Source: a virus (taxonomy: Duplodnaviria > Caudoviricetes). From it: 64,000 nucleotides of DNA. The notes under the pieces are model-generated. The model was not told the DNA's origin. It saw only the letters and a program-made list of their open reading frames with translations, and ran no database searches. This document shows, in pieces, positions 6,031 through 57,886 of this stretch. The position numbers and the translations under genes are program-made. How positions within the stretch are numbered: position 1 is the first letter of the stretch; every line of letters begins with the position of its first letter. The stretch covers positions 6,245-70,244 of IMG/VR virus record IMGVR_UViG_3300031416_000352. The stretch is one strand, 5' to 3'.

Positions 6031-6318
6031 TCAGTGGGTCTGATTGGCTTGCTGGTTGTGGTAGCCCTCAAACAAAGGCGAAAGCTGCACGCGGAGGTCA
6101 ATGCCTTCATCCAGAGCTGCGCCGTAGCTGGCGAGCGCTGCTCCAGCGGCGTACAAGCAGCCGTATAGCGCTGTAATGGAGCCGTGCTTTTTGGTGTGCT
6201 CGTTCATCAAGTCGATGATCGGATGCGCAACAGCCTCGATAGCGTGGTTGGCCTCATCGGCCGGGATCTCGTTGGTTTCGCGGTGCACGCCTGGCGGCAG
6301 GGTGGTGTCGTTGTCCAT
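6031..6318 (-). CDS. Hypothetical phage protein
   Basis: 95-aa ORF with AGGA RBS, operon orientation. Confidence 0.65.
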   Translation of the reverse strand: MDNDTTLPPGVHRETNEIPADEANHAIEAVAHPIIDLMNEHTKKHGSITALYGCLYAAGAALASYGAALDEGIDLRVQLSPLFEGYHNQQANQTH

Positions 6319-40736: not shown

Positions 40737-40752
40737 CTGTGTTTTTATCCAG
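40737..40752. promoter_or_regulatory. LexA (SOS) box upstream of the DprA-PRTase cassette
   Basis: taCTGtgtttttatcCAGtg, directly before the GGAG RBS and ATG 40766. Confidence 0.8.
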
Positions 40753-40765
40753 TGGAGCTACAAAC

Positions 40766-41701
40766 ATGCATGACATGCATTCTGAACTGCCGTTTGCGCC
40801 AGATGCGGATGCTGCACGTCATGAGTGGAGGCTCATCTTCAAGTGCAAGCCGGTTGACGTCCACACCGAACTAGGTGCTTACGAGTACCTGTGGCTACAG
40901 AGCAAGACATCGGTCAAGCGGATGGCAGAGTTGTTCAATGACAACCCAAATGCATTGCCCTCTGACCTTGTTGATTTCGATATTGCGGTGGATACAGCTA
41001 ACCAAGTAGTCGCCCATTTCACAGAGAAGGGCTTGGAGGAATTTGGTGTGCGAGTGCATGGGGCCGACGAATACCCAGATAGTTTGCGGGATGCTGTTGA
41101 GCCTATTGAAATGCTTTACTATCAGGGCGATTGGGAGTTGGTAGAGTCACCAAAGCGTGTGGCAGTTGTGGGCACGCGCAATATTTCACCAGAAGGCGCG
41201 GCACGTACGCGTAAATTAGTTAAAGCTCTTGTGGAGCATGATTTCACGGTTGTATCAGGTTTGGCTAAAGGTGTAGACACTGTTGCTCACCGTACTGCCA
41301 TTGAGTGCGGTGGCAGGACTATTGCTGTTATCGGTACACCACTAACAGAAGTGTATCCACGGGAAAATCAAGATCTTCAGCGTGAAATTGCTTCTAAGCA
41401 TCTTGTTATCAGTCAGGTGCCTGTTCTGAAATATCTACAGCAAGATTATAGAATGAACAGATTATTTTTTCCTGAGCGCAATAAGACGATGTCTGCTTTG
41501 ACCAATGCGACAATTATTGTCGAGGCTGGCGAGACATCAGGAACATTGATTCAAGCAACTGCAGCCTTGAAGCAAAACCGAAAACTTTTCATTTTGGAAA
41601 GTAATTTCCATAATCCTAACATTTCTTGGCCTGCAAAGTTTGAGAAGCTTGGTGCAATTCGCGTTCGCGACTTTGATGACATTGTAATAAATTTGAACTA
41701 A
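40766..41701 (+). CDS. DprA/SMF-family protein, ShosA-like antitoxin of a ShosTA-type defence system
   Basis: VAVVGTR, VVSGLAKGVDTVAH, IAVIGT, FFPERNKTMSAL...IIVEAG..SGTL motifs; lacks the C-terminal domain of competence DprA; low GC. Confidence 0.88.
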   Translation: MHDMHSELPFAPDADAARHEWRLIFKCKPVDVHTELGAYEYLWLQSKTSVKRMAELFNDNPNALPSDLVDFDIAVDTANQVVAHFTEKGLEEFGVRVHGADEYPDSLRDAVEPIEMLYYQGDWELVESPKRVAVVGTRNISPEGAARTRKLVKALVEHDFTVVSGLAKGVDTVAHRTAIECGGRTIAVIGTPLTEVYPRENQDLQREIASKHLVISQVPVLKYLQQDYRMNRLFFPERNKTMSALTNATIIVEAGETSGTLIQATAALKQNRKLFILESNFHNPNISWPAKFEKLGAIRVRDFDDIVINLN

Positions 41702-41702
41702 T

Positions 41703-42392
41703 ATGCGAATGCAAATTGTTGGTGAAATAGAGCGGCGACAGCACTATCATCTAAATGCACAGCATGTGTGTTATTTCTTTGGCGAATACACGCCTCATGA
41801 GTACACAGAAGGTCGCAGAGCTAGTTTTTCTGAGACTAATCAGCATATTAGCAACCTCAAGAAGAGCATGACTCGCAAGGGGATGCATGATTGGCACTAT
41901 AAGGCTAACGCAATTGATATTGCAGGAAAGCGGCTTTTTGATGCAATAAACTGGGAGACGGCAGTTAAAGACGCTACATTTATACCCGTGCCACCATCCA
42001 AAATTAGAACCGATGCAGCATATGATGATCGGATGCTAAAGGTTCTTCAGCGTCTCAATAGTCGTCTCCCTTTTGAACTTGACATAAGGGATATGTTGAT
42101 TTCAGATGGCAGCCTTAATGCAAGTCATGAGAACAATGGCAGAGCTACACCTGAAGAAATTTCAAAATCAATTTCTTTCGACGAAGCGCTGGCGGGAAAG
42201 CTTCCGGCACCAAAATACTTGTTTGTGCTAGATGATGTTTTAACAACTGGATCGCACTTCGTGGGCATATCACAGTTGTTGTCCCAGAGGTTTCCAGGGG
42301 TACCTATCGTCGGGTGTTTTGTAGCAAGGACTGTTAGACCTGAAACAGATTTCAGTGCAATATTTGACGATTCCCCAGATATAGATTTTTAA
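41703..42392 (+). CDS. Phosphoribosyltransferase (ComF-like), ShosT-like toxin
   Basis: FIPVPPS and PRPP-binding VLDDVLTTGSHF motif; abuts the DprA-like gene; low GC. Confidence 0.85.
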   Translation: MRMQIVGEIERRQHYHLNAQHVCYFFGEYTPHEYTEGRRASFSETNQHISNLKKSMTRKGMHDWHYKANAIDIAGKRLFDAINWETAVKDATFIPVPPSKIRTDAAYDDRMLKVLQRLNSRLPFELDIRDMLISDGSLNASHENNGRATPEEISKSISFDEALAGKLPAPKYLFVLDDVLTTGSHFVGISQLLSQRFPGVPIVGCFVARTVRPETDFSAIFDDSPDIDF

Positions 42393-42451: not shown

Positions 42452-42494
42452 TATAGGGCTTAGCCATCCCCCACCCAGGGAGCAGAGTGGGGGG
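42452..42494 (+). promoter_or_regulatory. Late promoter 7 (giant protein), predicted leaderless
   Basis: TATAGGGCT (42452-42460), 22 nt, CAGAGT (42483-42488), 6 nt, ATG. Confidence 0.72.
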
Positions 42495-51400: not shown

Positions 51401-51680
51401 CCGCGCCTTCTACACCCAGCAGAGCGCCGACATCAAGGCGCAGTGGGCGGACGCGCTTTTCCGCAAGGACGAGGCAGCGCTGGAGAGCGTGCGCGAGCGT
51501 CTGGCCAGCTGGAATCGAAAGAACCCTGACATGCCTATCGTGGTGCAGATGCCCCAGATCTGGAAGAAGGTCCGTGAAATGGGCAAGGATAAGCAGCAGC
51601 GGATCGCCGACACCGCGCCAAAGGCCCTGCGTCAGCAGATGCGGGAAATGGCGCGGGAAGCAGGGGGCGCCCCGGTATAG
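42495..51680 (+). CDS. 3061-aa polyvalent internal virion protein (InPase, ART-PolyVal, two zincin-like peptidase motifs, PLxRFG)
   Basis: GNYRKGHV...IENP.GS.R...HYGY...GADKDHVDVF; FKRWFGDSKVVDADGKPLVMYHGT...GFDGI...EQIKSATGN; LLHEMIH and FHELFH; GYAPLSRFG. Confidence 0.88.
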   Translation: MANESLKPFAGELDTTQSIKAKGLQPFKGVLDGDEEKRSTGEAFKDVGLGLAQGAAGLVKSAGDAYGLVTGDMDNTVSKTAGGWQESLDKEKSAGFQARAARRKENIDAQDSTLGKAWTAVKDTVTDPALALDTVATNVSTLIPGALAGRAVAAARMAQAARVGLTGEAAAAAATQAGKAGTAAALGTGAAQQATDVSAQAYEDNTKKDEAIWDANPEFQAALAANGGDRAKAKHDLSLDAARAAFLPAAGISLAANAVPGGAMLEKALVGGAAREVAKEGAKLAVPKAIAKTALGEATGEAIEEGGGQYAANVAAQQYIDPNQDLMNGVGENAGLGAAGGLLMGAAGGAFHGHRPAPGSQQEQQNALDAANQAAADALEGSPSALEAQQWSTAPGAAPDGAPDQTQAASPLYDPRIDGMSTSPGAAQAQGNEVEFTRDFDTAGLALAPDAPAGAPAAPGPDAAADLAQVLDQRTPAQRMGLDENAGTMSAAAVLAVNSGAAGQLQAASAAAAAQQQDAKAQEPAAKTTSAAPASAVDADGHSFDDARMPELAPEEFTARQRKLNQELSVAMNNNDRPALSRIGDAKRELFNGSRSTADLMADYNAAEGSREATAKHEQRGIRDELGKRGLVVERQVQNDSGEVRFTAKPITQNTQQAPEPGVYATYEDARKARGEQNARGTSVKVIPSPVEGGFILAAKGTPEYVVGEKYAEQRRKQDSAANRQKMAESNAKYKAAADLAKQLKAEREGAQSAQAAAASTINRVQTTGETANGIEADQAQQAGPQRIAPTGDGGSIATENAGPGARAPRIVAKGRAAAGPVDGAGSGQPAQGLTDGSTTTANPGAKASPAPSPQAQAQEPAQQRAQQLDDAGAAWARMPAAERQGVAARLDGVKPVIAKNLPKSQWKNLNGDLQRKIADAIAPAPVSSNAPMQAPEPAGAPAGPVQPDAQASAASEPAPTAESAAVASAAHEAATSQQNDLPAPTEAQLDAGNYRKGHVRINGLDISIENPAGSKRRPEWPALKNHYGYLKGTVGADKDHVDVFLTDRASDSSLPVFVVDQVNRDGTFDEHKVVLGAANEADARQAYLDNYAKGWTGLGAITEMTQDEFKAWARDPSKTKVPAGKPGGRSADSNSEQNASKITSEFPLKEAASSYSGISHSGTSRAKADAAEFDAYLDKARKEGEAVARSEAQKAAVDAAVDALRADYLAQYRRLMGVRADTYSGFVAGRSGLNSKQADKRNSAYDRAIDTFVGWQKANQDRARQSALDARTEAEKTADRQAAKQALADKAKRKEDGNLGLMRKILSWNKDGDPVAVSKTANLAGVNLGRDGYPSSIKLVPTDGTTLTDNKFDLAALFRTKGMTVPDSKKRVRDLVDAVRAEDANTPEVDSSTKLDQTSTAAFKRWFGDSKVVDADGKPLVMYHGTSGSQNGEAFTSFDVYASNYGLMGMGGYFTADPAVASSYTAKGKGDTPSVYPVYLSIKKPLDMDAPADVAAWKKQFPDAESYHESGTSNESWYRAAEESVQEKGLPRWEGAEVMQDSLRAMGFDGITHIGGGRVKTDGVQHRVFIAFEPEQIKSATGNSGAFDAADPNITAFGTREARAGTPTDRALMDMVREGKPAQDLLQLISGTSKSRFNKQVARLLMKAKVSPTVALEAGALGGDGNFTFLARYRRSTDTIGLTAGAQAQAEQILLHEMIHAATLKALDRKGVASVQMRKLYEHVKKQGGANGTYGMKNVGEFVAEAFTNPEFQRQLKQMSAPQGNVLKSAWDSLVRILHTILGLPVDSTNALSQALTLGVEVMRENVALRRRQEGSVAAKKPEVRYRTENTGQSNQAEGKPFTVAQAEAIVQGLRKGAPFLKGVQVVADPSQVPEIARDWDPSIQAIPKGATLSTGEVYIFAGGHSSKLDLIQTVFHELFHSGVLRLGDGNVHYNTMVQMAKSDPRVEHGARAWRETEVGRAQMDAIREANPGRSDNWVKQLHYAVSVEESLAEISEDLTRNRMVGTKRTVLVRRLSAALSRIADSLGFHGLAAHIRSLNLTQTERFVLNTISMASPGNTTPFNGPANGPAVRYRATATVKNDGLGAAATAIKDGAMAYVHDAMNQAPGTVHWWHKTVGTMNNLAERNPAFKPVFEAAQQFTDDVSSLANDVANQAPRLIPRLESLGDLKFWGKDARKPISGEDNTAIAKPLFEGTLMWTRDIHGKPITVDALEKETDTWDTSTKEHYLIATKELTAPQARAWQGLPLAQYEKLVTDAFKNKVLKPGIRWTDAELRSMFKLSDGQLSLFKEARSTIDASIDTTARADMMRMIGEEYRDMREAVMEAPTLDDALTLVTRTLQDEAKANPDSSERLMALHNSVVAGATKARDLIAKGYAPLSRFGSHTVDVLDAKGERLYFGLFETAREADAMQANMAEVYKGEPGVQIGRGTLSKEEYKLFAGVTPESLEAFGTMLGLDTEGNEAKDAAFQEYIRRTKNNHSALKRLIHRKGIAGYSQDVGRVLASFVYSNARQGAGALNAGIMEKAIQEIPKQQGQLRDVAMGLRSYIQDPQEEGQAVRGFLFAQYLGGSVASAVVNMLQPVQITFPWLSQYGGVKQAGAQLTRAFKDMATVGKTYEPDLAKALKRAEDEGTVSPQEIHQLMAQARGEASLRAGDGTALGNARATASNAWRRTVVAWGQPFAWAEQLNRRSTFIAAYRIAVAEKMADPDAFAAKAVKETQFQYSKSNKMRWGRGAIGGTLMTFKSYSVSYLELMGRMWNAGTPGSQQRAESRKALVLMVAMLALMGGAGGLPFVEDVEDLVNGLMNKMGYNWDSKQARKQFLQQVIGQAGAEFINSGISGLPGMPIDVAGRLGMGNLIPGTGLVGPQTDKSRDLLELVGPAGDFAKRIFNAAGMALGGSVGSAALEASPGAVRNAVKGVDMATSGMYKDGRGYKVIDTNLGEALSKFIGFQPRAVADVQEANGAMQKSRAFYTQQSADIKAQWADALFRKDEAALESVRERLASWNRKNPDMPIVVQMPQIWKKVREMGKDKQQRIADTAPKALRQQMREMAREAGGAPV

Positions 51681-51718
51681 GGTTCGACGGCAGAGGGCTG
51701 GCCCGAGAACATCGGGCC
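51676..51718 (+). promoter_or_regulatory. Late promoter 8 (lysis), predicted leaderless; box overlaps the stop codon of the giant gene
   Basis: TATAGGGTT (51676-51684), 22 nt, GAACAT (51707-51712), 6 nt, ATG; no SD. Confidence 0.78.
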
Positions 51719-52015
51719 ATGAAAAAAGCTCTCGCCGTCTTCCTTGCCGCCATAGGGGTTAACCGTCACCTCAGTGCGGAGCAGCGCCAGGACGTTGCCA
51801 ATGCGGCCTTCCACGTCACACCTGGGGCGGCGGCGACTGGCGTTTCCAAGGTCTGGGGCCTGCCGCTGAGCGAATGGGTGATGGTGGCCTCGATCCTGCT
51901 TATTGCCCTGCAGGCCGTCTATCTAATCTGGAAGTGGCGCCGCGACTACCGGCGTGACCTTGCGCGCCGCGCCCTGGGCAAGCTGGCCGAAGAAACTGTG
52001 CGGGGTGACCTGTGA
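51719..52015 (+). CDS. Holin
   Basis: GLPLSEWVMVASILLIALQAVYLIWKWRR TM segment with basic C-terminus; precedes the endolysin. Confidence 0.75.
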   Translation: MKKALAVFLAAIGVNRHLSAEQRQDVANAAFHVTPGAAATGVSKVWGLPLSEWVMVASILLIALQAVYLIWKWRRDYRRDLARRALGKLAEETVRGDL

Positions 52016-52629
52016 GCAGCCGGGCCAAAGTCTGGGGAAGCCTGACAGCGCTTATCACCGCAGTGGTGGTGGGCGTGCTGGGCACTGAAGGCGGCCACGT
52101 CAATGACCCCAACGACGCAGGCGGCGAGACGAACCACGGCATCACCATAGCAGTGGCGCGCGACCACGGCTACACCGGCCCTATGGCGAGCATGCCGGTG
52201 GAGAAGGCCATCGACATCTACGCCGATTCGTACATCAAGGGGCCGAAGTTTGACCAGGTGCTGGCGCTGTCGCCGGCGGTGGGCACCAAGCTGACCGATA
52301 TCGGGGTGAACGCCGGGCCAGGCCGCGCCGCGCGCTGGCTGCAGCAGTCCCTCAACGACCTGAGTCGTGGCGGCCGTGACTTCACCATGGTGGCCGTGGA
52401 TGGCGACATTGGTGCCCGCACGCTGGCCGCCTATGCCGCGCTGGAAAAGCGCCGGGGCCGCGTCAAGGCCTGCGAGCTGACGATCAAGCTGCTCGATGGC
52501 TACCAGGCCGCCCACTATTCAGCTCTTGCCAAGAGCGCCTCCAATGCCAGCTTCATGGTGGGTTGGATCGACAACCGCATCGGCAACGTCCCGCTGGACC
52601 GTTGCGCCGAGACGGTGAGGCCAGCATGA
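52012..52629 (+). CDS. Endolysin, glycoside hydrolase family 108 + PG-binding domain, possible SAR N-terminus
   Basis: EGGHVNDPNDAGGETNHGIT catalytic motif; VDGDIGARTL; F..GW...RI. Confidence 0.93.
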   Translation: MSSRAKVWGSLTALITAVVVGVLGTEGGHVNDPNDAGGETNHGITIAVARDHGYTGPMASMPVEKAIDIYADSYIKGPKFDQVLALSPAVGTKLTDIGVNAGPGRAARWLQQSLNDLSRGGRDFTMVAVDGDIGARTLAAYAALEKRRGRVKACELTIKLLDGYQAAHYSALAKSASNASFMVGWIDNRIGNVPLDRCAETVRPA

Positions 52630-53117
52630 ACATCATGGCCTTCATCCAGCGTTGGGCGGTCGTAGCACTGATCGTTGCGGCGCTGATTGCGTGTCTCAAG
52701 ATGAAGCAGCTTGAGACGGAGCTGATGGAAGCGCGCCTGGATGCTGCCAGCAAGCAGCTTGATCTCTCACTGGCGCAGCGTGCGGCTGATGCGCGTGTAG
52801 CCAAGGCCAGCGCCAATGCGGCCGCCAAATTCCAAGGAGCCCTGAATGCATCCCTCAAACGTGAGGCGCTGCAGCGCCTGGAGCTTGATGGTCTGCGCCG
52901 TGTCAATGACGGCCTGCGCGACCAAAACGCCGATGCCGCCCGCCGACTTGCCGCTGCTCCCCCCGCCGCCGTCCTTGAGTACGCCACTGCCCTCGGAGTC
53001 GTATTTGAAGACTGCCGCGCAGCGTATGGCGACTTGGCAGCAAAGGCTGCAGGCCACGCAAGTGATGTCGTCACCGCCCACGACGCCTGGCCCAGCTTCA
53101 CCCCAGTGAAGGAATAG
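52626..53117 (+). CDS. Rz: i-spanin (Rz-like)
   Basis: N-terminal TM helix followed by coiled coil; follows the endolysin. Confidence 0.8.
   Translation: MNIMAFIQRWAVVALIVAALIACLKMKQLETELMEARLDAASKQLDLSLAQRAADARVAKASANAAAKFQGALNASLKREALQRLELDGLRRVNDGLRDQNADAARRLAAAPPAAVLEYATALGVVFEDCRAAYGDLAAKAAGHASDVVTAHDAWPSFTPVKE
52846..53109 (+). CDS. Rz1: o-spanin lipoprotein (Rz1-like), embedded in Rz
   Basis: GGAG RBS; lipobox SMTA-C; Pro-rich; alternative frame inside Rz. Confidence 0.75.
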   Translation: MHPSNVRRCSAWSLMVCAVSMTACATKTPMPPADLPLLPPPPSLSTPLPSESYLKTAAQRMATWQQRLQATQVMSSPPTTPGPASPQ

Positions 53118-53120
53118 GGC

Positions 53121-53405
53121 ATGGCCGCACAACGCCCACTGCCCCTCTACACGTCCCGCAGCACAGTGCGGGCGCTCAAGATCAAAGCCGTCACCTACAG
53201 CCGCGAGCCCTTGGAGGGCGTGCCGCGCGGCGAAGCCCTTATCACGCCAGCCGACGCGCGCTATGCACCCTTCTGGGTCAATGAGCCCTGGGCCATGAAG
53301 AACCGCCCCGAGGCTGGTGGCTACTACGTGGTTCACACGGACGGCCACCAATCGTTTTCACCCGCCAACGCATTTGAGAGCGGCTACAGCCGCTTGGAGG
53401 ATTGA
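53121..53405 (+). CDS. Conserved phage protein (GGYYVV..DG..SFSP...FE.GY domain); candidate anti-defence protein
   Basis: Motif recalled from small phage proteins and N-termini of DUF2829/Tad2-like proteins; not database-checked. Confidence 0.65.
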   Translation: MAAQRPLPLYTSRSTVRALKIKAVTYSREPLEGVPRGEALITPADARYAPFWVNEPWAMKNRPEAGGYYVVHTDGHQSFSPANAFESGYSRLED

Positions 53406-53812
53406 CCATGCCCACTACTACCGCACGCTACTTCGCCCACGCCCACCTGCCGCCAAAGCTGCAGGCCGTGGCTGCGCCCGTGGCCGTCTTGGCCGACAAC
53501 CTTGAGCAGCTGCTGCCCGATGGCCCAGAAAAGAGCGCCGGAATGCGCAAGCTGCTGGAGGCCAAGGATTGCTTTGTCCGCGTGGCCCTGGACATGCCCG
53601 AGCCGCAGGCCAGCACCGTGCCCGCGCATCAACAGCGCGTGCTCGATGAAAAGCAGGATCTGGATACCCGCATTGCCAAGCTGGGCGAGTTCATCAAAAG
53701 CAATCCTCTGTTCACCACCGTGGACCCTGAAGAACAAGCGCGCCTGCGCCGCCAACTGGACGTGATGCACGAGCTGGCCGCGATCCTGGCTGATCGCATC
53801 GACCATTTCTAA
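53402..53812 (+). CDS. Two-domain protein: helical hairpin (possibly Acb2/Tad1-like) + crAss001_48-like domain
   Basis: YFAHAHLPPKLQ...LPDGPEKSAGMRKLLEAKDCFVR and HQQRVLDEKQDLDTRIAKLGEFI...LRRQLDVM...ILADRI. Confidence 0.7.
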   Translation: MTMPTTTARYFAHAHLPPKLQAVAAPVAVLADNLEQLLPDGPEKSAGMRKLLEAKDCFVRVALDMPEPQASTVPAHQQRVLDEKQDLDTRIAKLGEFIKSNPLFTTVDPEEQARLRRQLDVMHELAAILADRIDHF

Positions 53813-53858
53813 GCCACCCGGCCCGCACCGGCCGGCAGCCGGAGTTTTTGGAGAAACG

Positions 53859-54983
53859 ATGACTTTCCTGAAAAAACATTGGCAACTCGCTGTCCCTGTG
53901 GCAATGATCGCCTTTCTGATCTTCTTCGGCTGGCGCGTGATTAGCCAGCATGCCCGAGTCATTGATCTGGGGCTGTTCATTCTGCTGGGCGTGGGGATCC
54001 TTTTGATTCCAGTGACCGACCTGGCTGGGCAGATCCTGAGCAAGCTCAAGGAGCAGGCCACGGCCGTGACGAACGAGACGACCATGGCTGTCGCTTCGGT
54101 GTCGTCGCCGAGCCCGCGAACACACCGGCAAGAGCTTGAGCTGGCAATGGTCGGGCGCATGGGCGATTTGCCGCTTTATGACCCAGCCCTGGAGGGCAAG
54201 CACGTCAAGACGATGCTGGATTCCTTGCTGGCGAAGGACGGCCCACCCATGCCATCGCCAGACGAACAGGTGGCTGAACGCGCATTGCGCCAGGTGCTAT
54301 CTGTCGTTCAGAGCTACCTGCCTCCTGATGGCATCAGCATTGACGACGCTATGAGCAAAATCATCGCTCTTGTTGACCCTTTTCCCATTGGCAGCAACGC
54401 AGCAGAGTTGCAGGCTGCGCCGGTTGACGGGATTGTGAAAAGCCGCGCCGATCTGCACAAGTGCCTGATCCACGGCGTAGCGGCGTGCCCTTGCCACAAG
54501 GAAAGCAACTATCTGCTGCGCAGCGCGGGCTACCCGGCAGACCTGCTGGGTACGTCGCCCCAGCCCGGCGCCAGCACCATTGCGCTGCAGGTGGTCGATC
54601 CTGGCCCCGACGCCCTGGAGCGCGAGATTCAAGCCAAGGGCCTGACCGCGCCGCGCGTGACCAAGGAAGACATCGAGGCTGAGATTACGCACGAGCACTA
54701 TTTCACTGCGGAGCAGGGCGCGCGCCATCCTGATGCGCACAACCCGCGTGACCATGGCGACGTGCAGCCTTGCCTGGCGCACCTCACGTTTTGCGTGCTG
54801 GTGCTCAAAAACGGCTTCCGCGTCACGGGCGAGTCGGCCTGCGTGAGCTCCGAGAACTTTGATGCCCAGATCGGCCGCGACTATGCTCGCGCCAACGCCA
54901 TCGAGAAGATGTGGCTCCTGCTGGGCTTCCGTTTAGCAGACAAGGTGCATTCTGACTTGGACACACCTGCTGAGCGCGGATAA
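53859..54983 (+). CDS. Membrane-anchored fusion protein with C-terminal N4 gp49/Sf6 gp66 (Acb4-like) domain
   Basis: Two N-terminal TM helices; C-terminal AKGLTAPRVT...LTFCVLVLKNGFRVTGESACVSSENFDAQIGR..AR.NAIEKMW.LLGF.L. Confidence 0.8.
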   Translation: MTFLKKHWQLAVPVAMIAFLIFFGWRVISQHARVIDLGLFILLGVGILLIPVTDLAGQILSKLKEQATAVTNETTMAVASVSSPSPRTHRQELELAMVGRMGDLPLYDPALEGKHVKTMLDSLLAKDGPPMPSPDEQVAERALRQVLSVVQSYLPPDGISIDDAMSKIIALVDPFPIGSNAAELQAAPVDGIVKSRADLHKCLIHGVAACPCHKESNYLLRSAGYPADLLGTSPQPGASTIALQVVDPGPDALEREIQAKGLTAPRVTKEDIEAEITHEHYFTAEQGARHPDAHNPRDHGDVQPCLAHLTFCVLVLKNGFRVTGESACVSSENFDAQIGRDYARANAIEKMWLLLGFRLADKVHSDLDTPAERG

Positions 54984-55007
54984 AACCATCAGCAGCCCAA
55001 CAGCTAA

Positions 55008-55038
55008 TCCACCCGTAAATTCCGGGTGGATTTTTTCA
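55008..55038 (+). terminator. Intrinsic terminator ending the lysis/post-lysis transcript
   Basis: atccacccg/cgggtggat stem plus T run. Confidence 0.75.
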
Positions 55039-55195
55039 TTGGCGTTCAGCAGTTGTCATTCATGAAGAGTGAGCTTGCGGCTAACGAAGCTGCGTTATGA
55101 TTGTTTCAAATTGAAGCAATTCGATTTTAAACACTCGTGCGCTTAGCGCGTGCTCCAGATGGCGCTATTTATTGATTTCAAGAAGGGGTAAAACA

Positions 55196-55444
55196 ATGGA
55201 AGTTTGGATCAAATCTCTGGAAGTGGAGATGCAAGTAAAAAAAAATGGTATCGAGTTGGAGGTTAGAAGCGCGGATGGCAAAGACCAGCTTGGCGACTGC
55301 TACGCTACCATGACCGGTCTAGTCTGGTGTCAAGGGCGCACCAAAAAAGAAAATGGGGTGAAAATTACTTGGCAGCAATTCATTGCTATCTGCAATTCCG
55401 AGGAGTCTTTGAAAGCGGCTGTCAAAGCGGCAAAAGCCGTTTAA
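55196..55444 (+). CDS. Low-GC hypothetical protein (82 aa)
   Basis: AAGGGG RBS, AT-rich upstream promoter-like region. Confidence 0.7.
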   Translation: MEVWIKSLEVEMQVKKNGIELEVRSADGKDQLGDCYATMTGLVWCQGRTKKENGVKITWQQFIAICNSEESLKAAVKAAKAV

Positions 55445-55460
55445 ACCGATTCCAATCTGA

Positions 55461-55589
55461 GCACTTCGCAACTGGAATGTCTTCGGTGCGGGCGGTGTAG
55501 CGGATCGTCCTGCGTTCCTGCTTCATCCCCCACCGCTCATTACCACCATCCAATCCAGCTGCTGCTAAATGCATTGTTTCGCGACCGAA
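55461..55589 (-). pseudogene. Relic 3' end of a second umuC gene (DUF4113-like tail)
   Basis: Manual translation FGRETMHLAAAGLDGGNERWGMKQERRTIRYTARTEDIPVAKC aligns with the intact UmuC end [12 protein letters not shown]...[24 protein letters not shown]. Confidence 0.8.
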
Positions 55590-55622
55590 GTTCGAGATGA
55601 GGAACGAAAGGATGGGGCTAGG

Positions 55623-55898
55623 ATGACTGAAGAAGAACGACTCGCATATCTGCTTCGCATTGAACAGGAGGGGCAGAATTCCTTCCGTTCAGGTCTGCCC
55701 ATGGAGAAGCGCTACCCCTATGACTCGCCTGAGTTCAACGCCTTTGAAGCTGGCTGGCGCAAGGGTTTTCGAATCGCAGACGCTGGACAGCAATCGTTGA
55801 TACCAAACTGGGCGACGGACTCCTACGAGCCGTACAAGCCGCCAGTGAAATTTAATTCCTATGCCGAGGCCAAAGGAAAGCCGCAGCCGGACGATTGA
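55623..55898 (+). CDS. Rmf/CrpP-fold-like small protein
   Basis: EGQNSFRSG.....YPYDSPEFNAFEAGWRKG resembles the G..A...G.....PY.....W..GW signature. Confidence 0.55.
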   Translation: MTEEERLAYLLRIEQEGQNSFRSGLPMEKRYPYDSPEFNAFEAGWRKGFRIADAGQQSLIPNWATDSYEPYKPPVKFNSYAEAKGKPQPDD

Positions 55899-56139: not shown

Positions 56140-57441
56140 TCAGCACCTTGCAATGGGGATTTCGTCGATGTTGGTGGTGTAGCGGGGCGTGCGCCGCTCC
56201 TGGCGCATGCGCCATCCAGCTTCGTCTTGCGAGGCAAAGCCTGTGCTGGCAACGTGCACCGTGCCTTTGCCGAAGCGGCCGTTCACCCGATCCATGGCCT
56301 CCATGAGGCGGCTTTGATCCCGGCCAACGTCTGCGGCGGCGAGCAGGTCGTGCTGCTCATGGCGGCTTTCGGCAAGGTCCATCAGCATCACGCCGGCCTT
56401 GGCCAGGCGAAACCCAGGCTGGTAGATAGAGTGCATGCCGCCCAGCGCGGCGCGCACCAGGGCTTTTGTGTCGGAGGTGGGGGGAACGAGTTGGGTGGTT
56501 GTCTGCCCGTAGAACCTGGGCCCTGGCCGGAAGGGTGAGGTATGGGCGAAGACCTGCAGGGCGCCGGCGCGCAGATCCTGCTTGCGCAGCTTCTCGGCCG
56601 CCCGCGTGGCGAACTCGCTGACGGCTTCGAGCAGGGGCTCGAGCTCGTTGATGCCGTGGCCAAAGCTGCGCGTGCACGCAATCTGCTTCTTGGGCGGCGG
56701 TGCCAGTTCCATCGGAATGCAGCTGATGCCCTGCAGCTCGCGGACGGTGCGCTCGAGCACGACACCCCAGTTGCTGCGCACCATGGGGCCCGGCATGCGG
56801 GAGACATCGAGGGCGGTAACAATCCCGCGCTCTGCCAGTTGCAAAGCGATCCGCCGGCCGATACCCCAGACATCGCCGGCCATGGTCCGGCGCAGCACAT
56901 CCTCGCGCATGGCCGCGGGCATCTCCTGCCAATTGCAGACCCGGGCCAGCTCGGCCGGGTAGCTGCCGGGCTTGCGCTCTGAGTCTTTGGCCACATGGTT
57001 GCAGAGCTTGGCCAGGGTCTTGGTGGGGGCCAGGCCTATGCAGCAGGGTATACCGACCCATTGCAGGATGCGCGCGCGCACGGCCCATGCACGGCGGTTC
57101 AGATCGCGCACGCCGGCCAGGTCGCCAATGAAGGATTCGTCAATGGAGTAGATTTCCTGCCGGGGCCCCAGGCCGGCGGCCAGCGTCATCATGCGGTCGC
57201 TCATGTCGCCGTACAGCTCGAAGTTGGCCGACAGGCACACTAAACCCTTGAGCTCGACCAGGTGCTGTAGCTGGAAGAAGGGCTGGCCCATCTTGACGCC
57301 CAAGGCTTTGGCCTCATCCGATCGGGCGATGGCACAGCCGTCGTTGTTGCTGAGCACCACCACCGGCAGGCCCTGCAGGCTCGGCCGGAATACCCGCTCA
57401 CAGCTCACATAAAAGTTGTTGCCGTCGATGAGTGCATACAT
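56140..57441 (-). CDS. umuC: Y-family DNA polymerase V subunit UmuC
   Basis: [27 protein letters not shown] and DUF4113 C-terminus. Confidence 0.96.
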
Positions 57442-57448
57442 GGCTGCC

Positions 57449-57886
57449 TCACGCGAAGATCTTGATGCAGCTGGTGACCACGCCCCAGATCTCCAGGCTC
57501 TGGCCTTCCTTGGGCGTGATGTCGGGGTAGGTGGGGTTGCCGGCCTTGAGCTTGACCATGCCTGCAGCCTTGAACAGCTTCTTGACCGTGAACTCCCCCT
57601 CGATGACGGCCACGACTATGCACCCGTGGCGGGCCTGCAGCGCCCGGTCGACCGCGACCAGGTCGCCATCATCAATGCCGAACTCGCGCATGGACGGCCC
57701 TGCCACGCGCAGCAGGTAGGTAGCCTGCGGGTGCTTAACGAGCAGGGCGCCTATGTCCAGCCGGGTGACGGCAAAGTCCTCAGCTGGCGAGGGGAAGCCC
57801 GCGCGCACAGACCCTTCGGCCCGCAGAATCGAGAGCGGGGCAGCTGACACCAGGATTGGTGTGTTGGGGTGTAGAATACTGTGCAT
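57449..57886 (-). CDS. umuD: DNA polymerase V subunit UmuD (S24)
   Basis: AGFPSPAED cleavage site, GPSM serine and FTVKKL lysine. Confidence 0.95.

Follow-up and report, generated by a model that had tools for sequence, protein, structure and literature searches.

A probable anti-defense sponge island at the end of a prophage lysis unit joins Sequestin and Acb4 family domains to uncharacterized modules

What is the function of three closely spaced genes that follow the spanin genes in the lysis region of a tailed phage provirus? We addressed this question in a 64,000-nucleotide stretch of virus DNA (Duplodnaviria; Caudoviricetes; IMG/VR record IMGVR_UViG_3300031416_000352, positions 6,245 to 70,244), hereafter called the window, which is part of a 70-kb IMG/VR provirus. 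A preliminary description, made from the sequence alone, had placed three open reading frames (ORFs) on the plus strand at 53121-54983, behind Rz/Rz1, and had proposed that they encode sponges, that is, proteins sequestering nucleotide immune signals. All three ORFs, here called genes i, ii and iii, are present at these positions, and the nearest homologs are found in Comamonas and Delftia. Our analysis indicates that the cluster is quite probably an anti-defense sponge island directed against nucleotide immune signaling and located at the end of a late lysis unit. Two of its modules are of known kinds, namely a Sequestin domain (gene ii) and an Acb4 domain (gene iii), while three are uncharacterized: an OB-fold domain (gene i), a helical hairpin (the first half of gene ii) and a putative membrane anchor (the first part of gene iii).

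The C-terminal half of gene ii belongs to an established sponge family. Residues 74-134 match PF21825 (crAss001_48) with an E-value of 1.5e-17 and 63.6 bits, compared with a cut-off of 24.8, and cover positions 1-60 of the 61-position profile (gene ii residue numbers follow the 136-residue ORF listed from the TTG at 53402). In the work of Tal et al., the crAss001_48 family emerged as the unknown domain most often fused to Tad2 and to Acb4, and was named Sequestin; the authors reported inhibition of type I Thoeris, through sequestration of 3' cyclic ADP-ribose (3'cADPR), for 10 of 13 members, and phage T4 Y16O belongs to the family (10.1101/2025.07.12.664507). The Y16O sequence, taken from the T4 record via the published primer (10.1101/2025.07.12.664507), aligns along its full length of 64 residues with residues 72-136 of gene ii (37% identity) and itself matches PF21825 at 4.3e-19. 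Moreover, E83, Q118 and R132 of gene ii occupy the columns, and keep the spacing, of E12, Q47 and R61, the predicted 3'cADPR contacts of SequestinA. This triad was placed through column and spacing, with identical residues in Y16O; SequestinA itself is not in the alignment. Q118 and R132 are invariant in 37 homologs. In the literature searched, no paper mentions crAss001_48 by that name, and the preliminary description had listed the domain as a guilt-by-association candidate for a new sponge family, a status overtaken by its publication as Sequestin (10.1101/2025.07.12.664507).

Gene iii, which encodes 374 residues, ends in a second sponge-family domain, as the preliminary description had recognized. 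Residues 267-362 match PF13876 with an E-value of 1.7e-27 and a score of 96.2 bits (cut-off 27), spanning positions 1-81 of the 82-position profile, and residues 309-357 align with chain positions 38-86 of SPO1 Acb4 (9E4W; phmmer E-value 0.002). PF13876 is the Acb4 family, whose SPO1 member is a 96-residue tetrameric sponge for 3'3'-cyclic GMP-AMP (3'3'-cGAMP); this ligand was bound by 8 of 8 homologs tested by Chang et al., and homologs of other specificities bind cGAMP too (10.1101/2024.12.30.630793). Acb4 homologs of Gram-negative origin bound c-di-AMP as well as cGAMP.

The first 250 of the 374 residues form an N-terminal extension to this domain, a feature absent from the preliminary description. 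Transmembrane helices are predicted for two hydrophobic segments, one at about residues 9-28 and one at about 31-56, whose hydropathy exceeds 1.6 in windows at residues 9-12 and 31-43, and a variable linker is followed by the motif HKCLxHGVAACPCHK at residues 200-214 (C-x2-H-x4-C-x-C-H). The in-frame GC content at third codon positions is high over the entire ORF (0.62-0.86). In two other IMG/VR proviruses, L002 and L003, 279-residue relatives of gene iii have shorter linkers and a nearly invariant transmembrane region and Cys/His motif. A further provirus (L004) carries, beside its lysis genes, a stand-alone 125-residue Acb4 that is 78% identical to the C-terminal part of gene iii. The extension gave no Pfam or PHROG match, no usable ESM Atlas match and no match in a tblastn search of 50,697 phage records. 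Since the transmembrane region and motif are kept in the two relatives and the extension has no database matches, gene iii is a rare, conserved and, judging by its predicted helices, membrane-anchored form of Acb4. The conserved helices and Cys/His motif could also belong to a lysis or superinfection membrane protein that employs an Acb4/dsRBD-like domain for another purpose, such as nucleotide sensing to time lysis. Such a role would fit the L003 relative, which lies directly after Rz/Rz1, and the replacement of several SPO1 Acb4 ligand-contact residues. We consider it very unlikely, however, given the close identity of the Acb4 domain to the soluble L004 homolog, the uniform 3'3'-cGAMP binding among tested Acb4 homologs (10.1101/2024.12.30.630793) and the finding that searches of Pfam, PHROG, the phage records and the Atlas returned no link between the N-terminal part and known lysis proteins.

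Gene i consists of an OB-fold domain alone. It has no Pfam match at E ≤ 1, PF11195 (Tad2, DUF2829) included. An AlphaFold2 model built from a 37-sequence family alignment (predicted local distance difference test score, pLDDT, 84.6) shows a small beta-barrel with two short helices. In fold it most resembles the OB domain of Dec, the decoration protein of phage L (6E3C), with a Foldseek E-value of 4.9e-4, a probability of 1.0, a TM-score of 0.65 and 28% identity over 90 columns. VIA-align gave the same pair a Z-score of 7.5 over 84 residues at 30% identity, and the next match after Dec had a Z-score of 5.3. Searched against the PDB, the family profile reached Dec at an E-value of 8.4e-6 from sequence alone. 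No Tad2 entry was among the matches listed in the fold searches. Gene i ends at residue 94, right after the OB domain, and the 134-residue Dec chain is aligned to about residue 90, so gene i has no counterpart of the C-terminal part of Dec. This remainder of Dec, a stretch of about 45 residues, is a trimerizing stalk.

The gene i family is large, with 5,536 representatives (50% identity clusters, E ≤ 1e-3), and its members are repeatedly joined to sponges. When the 150 best representatives were narrowed to the 77 longest, the OB domain was fused to Sequestin in seven cases, to Tad2 in four, to Acb4 in three and to the Acb2/Tad1 hairpin in two, with one case each of DUF551, PP-binding, DUF2158, RMF and SEC-C. 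The partner domains come after the OB domain. In P0261, for example, the OB domain spans residues 1-98 and Tad2 residues 103-187, and in P0178, P0276 and P0243 the two are likewise consecutive, separate domains. Two further representatives, P0167 and P0272, carry the OB domain doubled in tandem. In P22-like or lambdoid phages (L006; Escherichia phage Bas106), stand-alone OB genes follow the lysis and Rha genes and precede the terminase; others lie in a replication module or among small early genes. In one locus (L008:1-463), a stand-alone OB gene has small RMF-like and PP-binding genes nearby; elsewhere, each of these two domains is once a fusion partner of OB. In the literature searched, no paper joins OB-fold, sponge, phage and Thoeris.

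The kinship with Dec raises the alternative that gene i encodes a structural protein, which would decorate or cement the capsid in the manner of Dec, be produced late together with the virion genes and have no role in immune signaling. Both profile and fold link it to a capsid-binding OB domain, its position in a late unit would suit a virion protein, Ralstonia phage GP4 has an OB homolog between the portal and major head genes, and homologs in Pseudomonas phages Dolphis and Jeremy are annotated 'capsid decoration protein'. We nevertheless regard a structural role as unlikely. Nothing in gene i matches the part of Dec beyond the OB domain, the family is recurrently fused to cytoplasmic sponge domains, and its members also reside with replication genes, with small early genes and in post-lysis slots; even the Dolphis gene is surrounded by small hypothetical genes, not capsid genes.

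The N-terminal half of gene ii is a compact helical hairpin, modeled by AlphaFold2 (pLDDT 88.9) as a short lead-in followed by helices at residues 18-37 and 42-63. Its conserved sequence reads YFAHAHLP...GPEKSAGMRKLLEAKDCFVR, with the block GPEKSAGMRKLLEAKDCFVR nearly invariant. Homologs that consist of the hairpin alone (62-73 residues) make up 913 clusters, which share about 70% identity with the window copy and carry no Pfam domain; examples are a copy surrounded by nucleotide-metabolism genes in a large phage and copies behind Mor in Mu-like prophages. Of the 120 best homologs of near-equal length (out of 815), at least 118 combine the hairpin with Sequestin, and in two relatives a 58-residue insertion separates the halves. 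One OB-family protein, P0282, bears the hairpin at its C terminus (E-value 7.8e-19). The association of the hairpin with sponges, read from these gene fusions and from a Comamonas thiooxydans prophage described below, is solid.

Several candidate identities for the hairpin were examined. The hairpin had no PF24729 (Acb2/Tad1) match at E ≤ 1 by hmmscan, and neither had its stand-alone homolog in L011, the Comamonas thiooxydans prophage; a six-frame PF24729 search of the whole provirus found no match at E ≤ 10, and the control, T4 Vs.4 (Acb2), was recovered at 7.1e-20. The hhalign probability was 0.2 against Vs.4 and 0.5 against Vs.3/TadIV-1, and Foldseek searches of the PDB, VIA-align and PDB sequence-profile searches returned generic hairpins only. 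In BFVD, one weak row named 'Acb2/Tad1 hairpin' appeared at an E-value of 1.7, and among the ESM Atlas neighbors 51%, 35% and 14% of members carry PF24729, at a score of 0.89, below the 0.9 level. An identity with Acb2/Tad1 or TadIV-1 thus found no support from Pfam, the six-frame search, hhalign, PDB profiles, Foldseek or VIA-align, which leaves the BFVD row and the Atlas neighbors as leads. A duplication of the Sequestin domain as its origin was rejected (hhalign probability 3%), and a profile match to the 'Gp22' chain 8JAJ at an E-value of 0.11 was taken as chance.

These results sort out what the preliminary description had made of genes i and ii. The gene i motif that it singled out, GGYYVV..DG..SFSP..FE.GY, does exist and marks the best-conserved stretch of the large family; its assignment to DUF2829/Tad2 fell, given the missing PF11195 match, the Dec-like fold and the separation of OB and Tad2 domains in fusions. 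The presence of the OB domain beside Tad2 in other phages probably explains the DUF2829 assignment. For gene ii, the proposed fusion of a hairpin to a crAss001_48 domain was borne out, whereas the suggested resemblance of the hairpin to Acb2/Tad1 found no sequence or profile support. In the Pfam searches, PF13876 and crAss001_48 returned matches and DUF2829 and the Acb2/Tad1 hairpin did not. The idea that gene i and the hairpin could be sponges by association gained strength from the fusion and neighborhood data.

If the OB domain and the hairpin belong to sponge islands, they need not bind nucleotides themselves. They might be accessory or protein-targeting modules, which would assist sponge assembly or localization or bind host defense proteins, as Tad3-Tad8 do with ThsB and ThsA. 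The hairpin, with about 70% identity across hundreds of sequences and a 20-residue invariant block, is far more conserved than the Sequestin domain, a pattern that a protein target would explain no less well than a small ligand; both modules are fused to several sponge families, and direct protein inhibitors of Thoeris exist (PMC13728456). Conversely, both are very common as stand-alone genes far from sponge genes, which argues that they act on their own, and Tal et al. interpret sponge-sponge fusions as independent binding units (10.1101/2025.07.12.664507). We therefore treat the accessory role as possible, though doubtful. Similarly tentative is the proposal that at least one of the two modules constitutes a new sponge family or acts by a new mode; fusion to sponges is the type of evidence that led to Sequestin.

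The arrangement of the locus (Table 1) suggests that genes i-iii may be expressed with the lysis genes. The ATG of gene i at 53121 lies 3 nt past the Rz stop codon, with a GAAGGAA ribosome-binding site within the end of Rz. The gene i stop codon occupies 53403-53405, and the gene ii ATG at 53408 follows 2 nt downstream. We corrected the gene ii start to this ATG (134 residues) from the listed TTG at 53402, because close homologs all begin with MP(S/T)TT and GGAGGA precedes the ATG. Gene iii starts at ATG 53859, preceded by its own GGAGAAA site; the gap between genes ii and iii holds just one weak 5-bp hairpin (53828-53842), and the intrinsic terminator begins 23 nt past the gene iii stop. A YATAGGRBT box occurs in 11 copies in the window, compared with 1.73 ± 1.25 expected, nine of them on the plus strand; the plus-strand copies (15969-51684) include those at 42452, before a 3061-residue gene, and at 51676, before the holin gene. 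From the holin to 55032, the sole copy is at 51751-51759, within the start of the holin gene. With the box at 51676 before the holin and the strong terminator at 55006-55032, we infer that the lysis genes and genes i-iii look like a single late unit (51676-55032); the short spacings agree with the tight coupling in one transcript that had been proposed at the outset.

Table 1. Features of the putative late unit, in window coordinates
Feature	Positions	Strand	Evidence or remark
YATAGGRBT box TATAGGGTT	51676-51684	+	immediately 5' of the holin gene; putative late promoter
Holin	51719-52015	+	phrog_920, 1.4e-13
GH108 endolysin	52012-52629	+	PF05838, 1.2e-18; also PF09374 (PG_binding_3)
Rz-like spanin gene	end 53117	+	phrog_5777, 7.9e-33
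Rz1 lipoprotein, embedded in Rz	52846-53109	+	phrog_456 (Rz-like spanin), 5.6e-4
Gene i, 94 residues, Dec-like OB-fold domain alone	53121-53405	+	phrog_11049, 2.5e-19
Gene ii, N-terminal helical hairpin (about residues 1-68)	53408-53611	+	phrog_1761, 6.1e-24; phrog_5120, 1e-21
Gene ii, C-terminal Sequestin domain (PF21825, crAss001_48)	53615-53812	+	PF21825, 1.5e-17
Gene iii, N-terminal 250 residues: two predicted transmembrane helices, linker, Cys/His motif	53859-54608	+	hydropathy, conservation
Gene iii, C-terminal Acb4 domain (PF13876)	54612-54983	+	PF13876, 1.7e-27
Intrinsic terminator	55006-55032	+	10-bp stem (6 GC), 7-nt loop, TTTTTCATT tail

Related loci vary in which of these modules they hold. 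A search for usable RNA runs yielded contigs alone, mainly of DNA origin. The complete arrangement recurs at about 90% identity in contigs of other samples, with the gene iii linker replaced, and one small contig of low depth runs straight from the end of gene i (53386) into that of gene ii (53810), as would be seen without gene ii. In the L003 provirus, the gene iii relative stands directly after Rz/Rz1 and genes i and ii are absent. A parallel post-lysis island lies at 4001-5250 of L011 (Comamonas thiooxydans GCA_029841435.1, JAOCEK010000027.1), where a stand-alone hairpin gene (71 residues) overlaps the start of a Tad2-Sequestin fusion (153 residues) and is translationally coupled to it. 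The fusion is followed by a 176-residue protein with two transmembrane segments and a Cys-rich tail, which has the same build as the gene iii N terminus and no significant similarity to it. Together with L003 and L011, the contigs show a post-lysis slot in which these modules are shuffled.

Other features of the window lie outside the unit. Between the terminator and the umuDC-like genes (minus strand, 56140-57886), two small plus-strand ORFs in a stretch of lower GC content (90 and 109 residues; 55172-55898) have no Pfam or PHROG match. A 295-residue ORF at 62895-63782 matches the replication-associated protein family ORF2/G2P (PF23343, 1.9e-10), which suggests a second small element beside the tailed prophage. 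A low-GC patch at 40739-42392, just before the 3061-residue gene, encodes a DprA-family protein (PF02481, 1.6e-59, with a SLOG-like match too) and a 229-residue partner.

Read as a sponge island, the cluster would act from an accessory position that closes the late unit of lysis genes in a temperate phage with a Comamonas-like host. The Sequestin domain of gene ii would most likely form antiparallel homodimers that sequester 3'cADPR (1''-3' glycocyclic ADP-ribose, gcADPR), whereupon ThsA would stay inactive and type I Thoeris would be blocked. The Acb4 domain of gene iii would most likely assemble into a tetramer sequestering the cyclic dinucleotides of CBASS (antiphage signaling that is based on cyclic oligonucleotides), held at the inner membrane by the two predicted helices. 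The OB domain and the hairpin may belong to the same toolkit, each as an extra sponge for other signals or as an accessory or inhibitor module.

Several observations weigh against this reading. The SPO1 Acb4 ligand contacts are K36, F48, E49, V56, Y57, F62, N63, I66, T70 and K81 (10.1101/2024.12.30.630793). Mapped onto gene iii through the 9E4W phmmer alignment, K36, E49, Y57, T70 and K81 are replaced by H308, R321, V329, Y342 and L353, and V56 corresponds to C328. The hydrophobic nucleobase-pocket residues are kept (F48 as F320, F62 as F334, I66 as I338), with N63 conservatively changed to D335. Base-specific and phosphate contacts thus differ while the base pockets remain, which suggests a ligand preference different from that of SPO1 Acb4. 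With 374 residues and two predicted transmembrane helices, gene iii also departs from the usual small, soluble sponge, and its cluster looks late, whereas SPO1 Acb4 is made early after infection (PMC13728456). In the gene i family, the conserved residues are largely Dec-like and, being shared with a capsid binder, may be fold-determining rather than part of a pocket; moreover, the window copy, like its clade, departs from the family consensus at five conserved positions (CHK to SRS, KH to KN, Y72H and Y76H).

What could these genes add to the known repertoire? Seven sponge families were recognized as of October 2026 (PMC13712596), and reviews up to November 2026 mention no OB-fold family and no hairpin of the gene ii type (PMC13712596, PMC13728456). 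Sequestin was discovered purely through its fusion to Tad2 and Acb4 (10.1101/2025.07.12.664507). Because neither the OB domain nor the hairpin has a Pfam model, both would have been missed by Pfam-based fusion surveys, to which the hairpin in front of Sequestin is invisible. Freed from Pfam, the same fusion logic highlights them as two abundant families that travel with four or five known sponge families. If either were to bind a defense nucleotide, it would constitute a widespread new counter-defense family, and its target signal might emerge, for example cyclic triadenylate (cA3), His-ADPR, N7-cADPR or cyclic pyrimidines. Dec would then have branched off from a family of nucleotide-binding accessory proteins, or vice versa. 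Gene iii, in turn, could be a form of Acb4 that is tethered to the membrane and catches cyclic dinucleotides at the site where CBASS effectors acting on the membrane receive them, which raises the question of whether the cellular location of a sponge matters. Should no new family be involved, the locus would still be a clean multi-sponge island of a known kind, with Sequestin and Acb4.

Comparison with known systems places each module at a different distance from its closest counterpart. Like the Sequestins T4 Y16O, SequestinA and SequestinB, gene ii keeps the predicted E/Q/R triad for 3'cADPR; unlike them, its domain is preceded by a 68-residue hairpin module. That hairpin shares its predicted architecture, a lead-in and an antiparallel two-helix hairpin of about 65 residues, with Acb2/Tad1 (PF24729; T4 Vs.4) and TadIV-1 (T4 Vs.3), and differs from the Acb2/Tad1 domain in giving no match to its hidden Markov model. 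The gene iii C terminus resembles SPO1 Acb4 in that it passes the Pfam threshold widely and aligns with the solved protein, to which gene iii adds the variable linker and the C-x2-H-x4-C-x-C-H motif. Dec from phage L (6E3C) shares with gene i the fold, about 28-30% identity over 84-90 residues and, with the gene i family, motifs such as P-x-Y, ALxIK, P-E-x-GGY and AFE-x-x-Y; by contrast, the family motifs CHK, KH-x-P and DGY-x-S-x-SP are not in Dec, and the family is fused to sponge domains and occurs outside structural modules. Finally, sponge clusters of other phages (T4 vs.3-vs.4 and the Acb4-Tad2, Tad2-Sequestin and Sequestin-Acb4 fusions) likewise bring sponge modules together as neighbors or fusions and counter several systems, whereas here three genes closing a lysis operon contain five modules, three of them uncharacterized.

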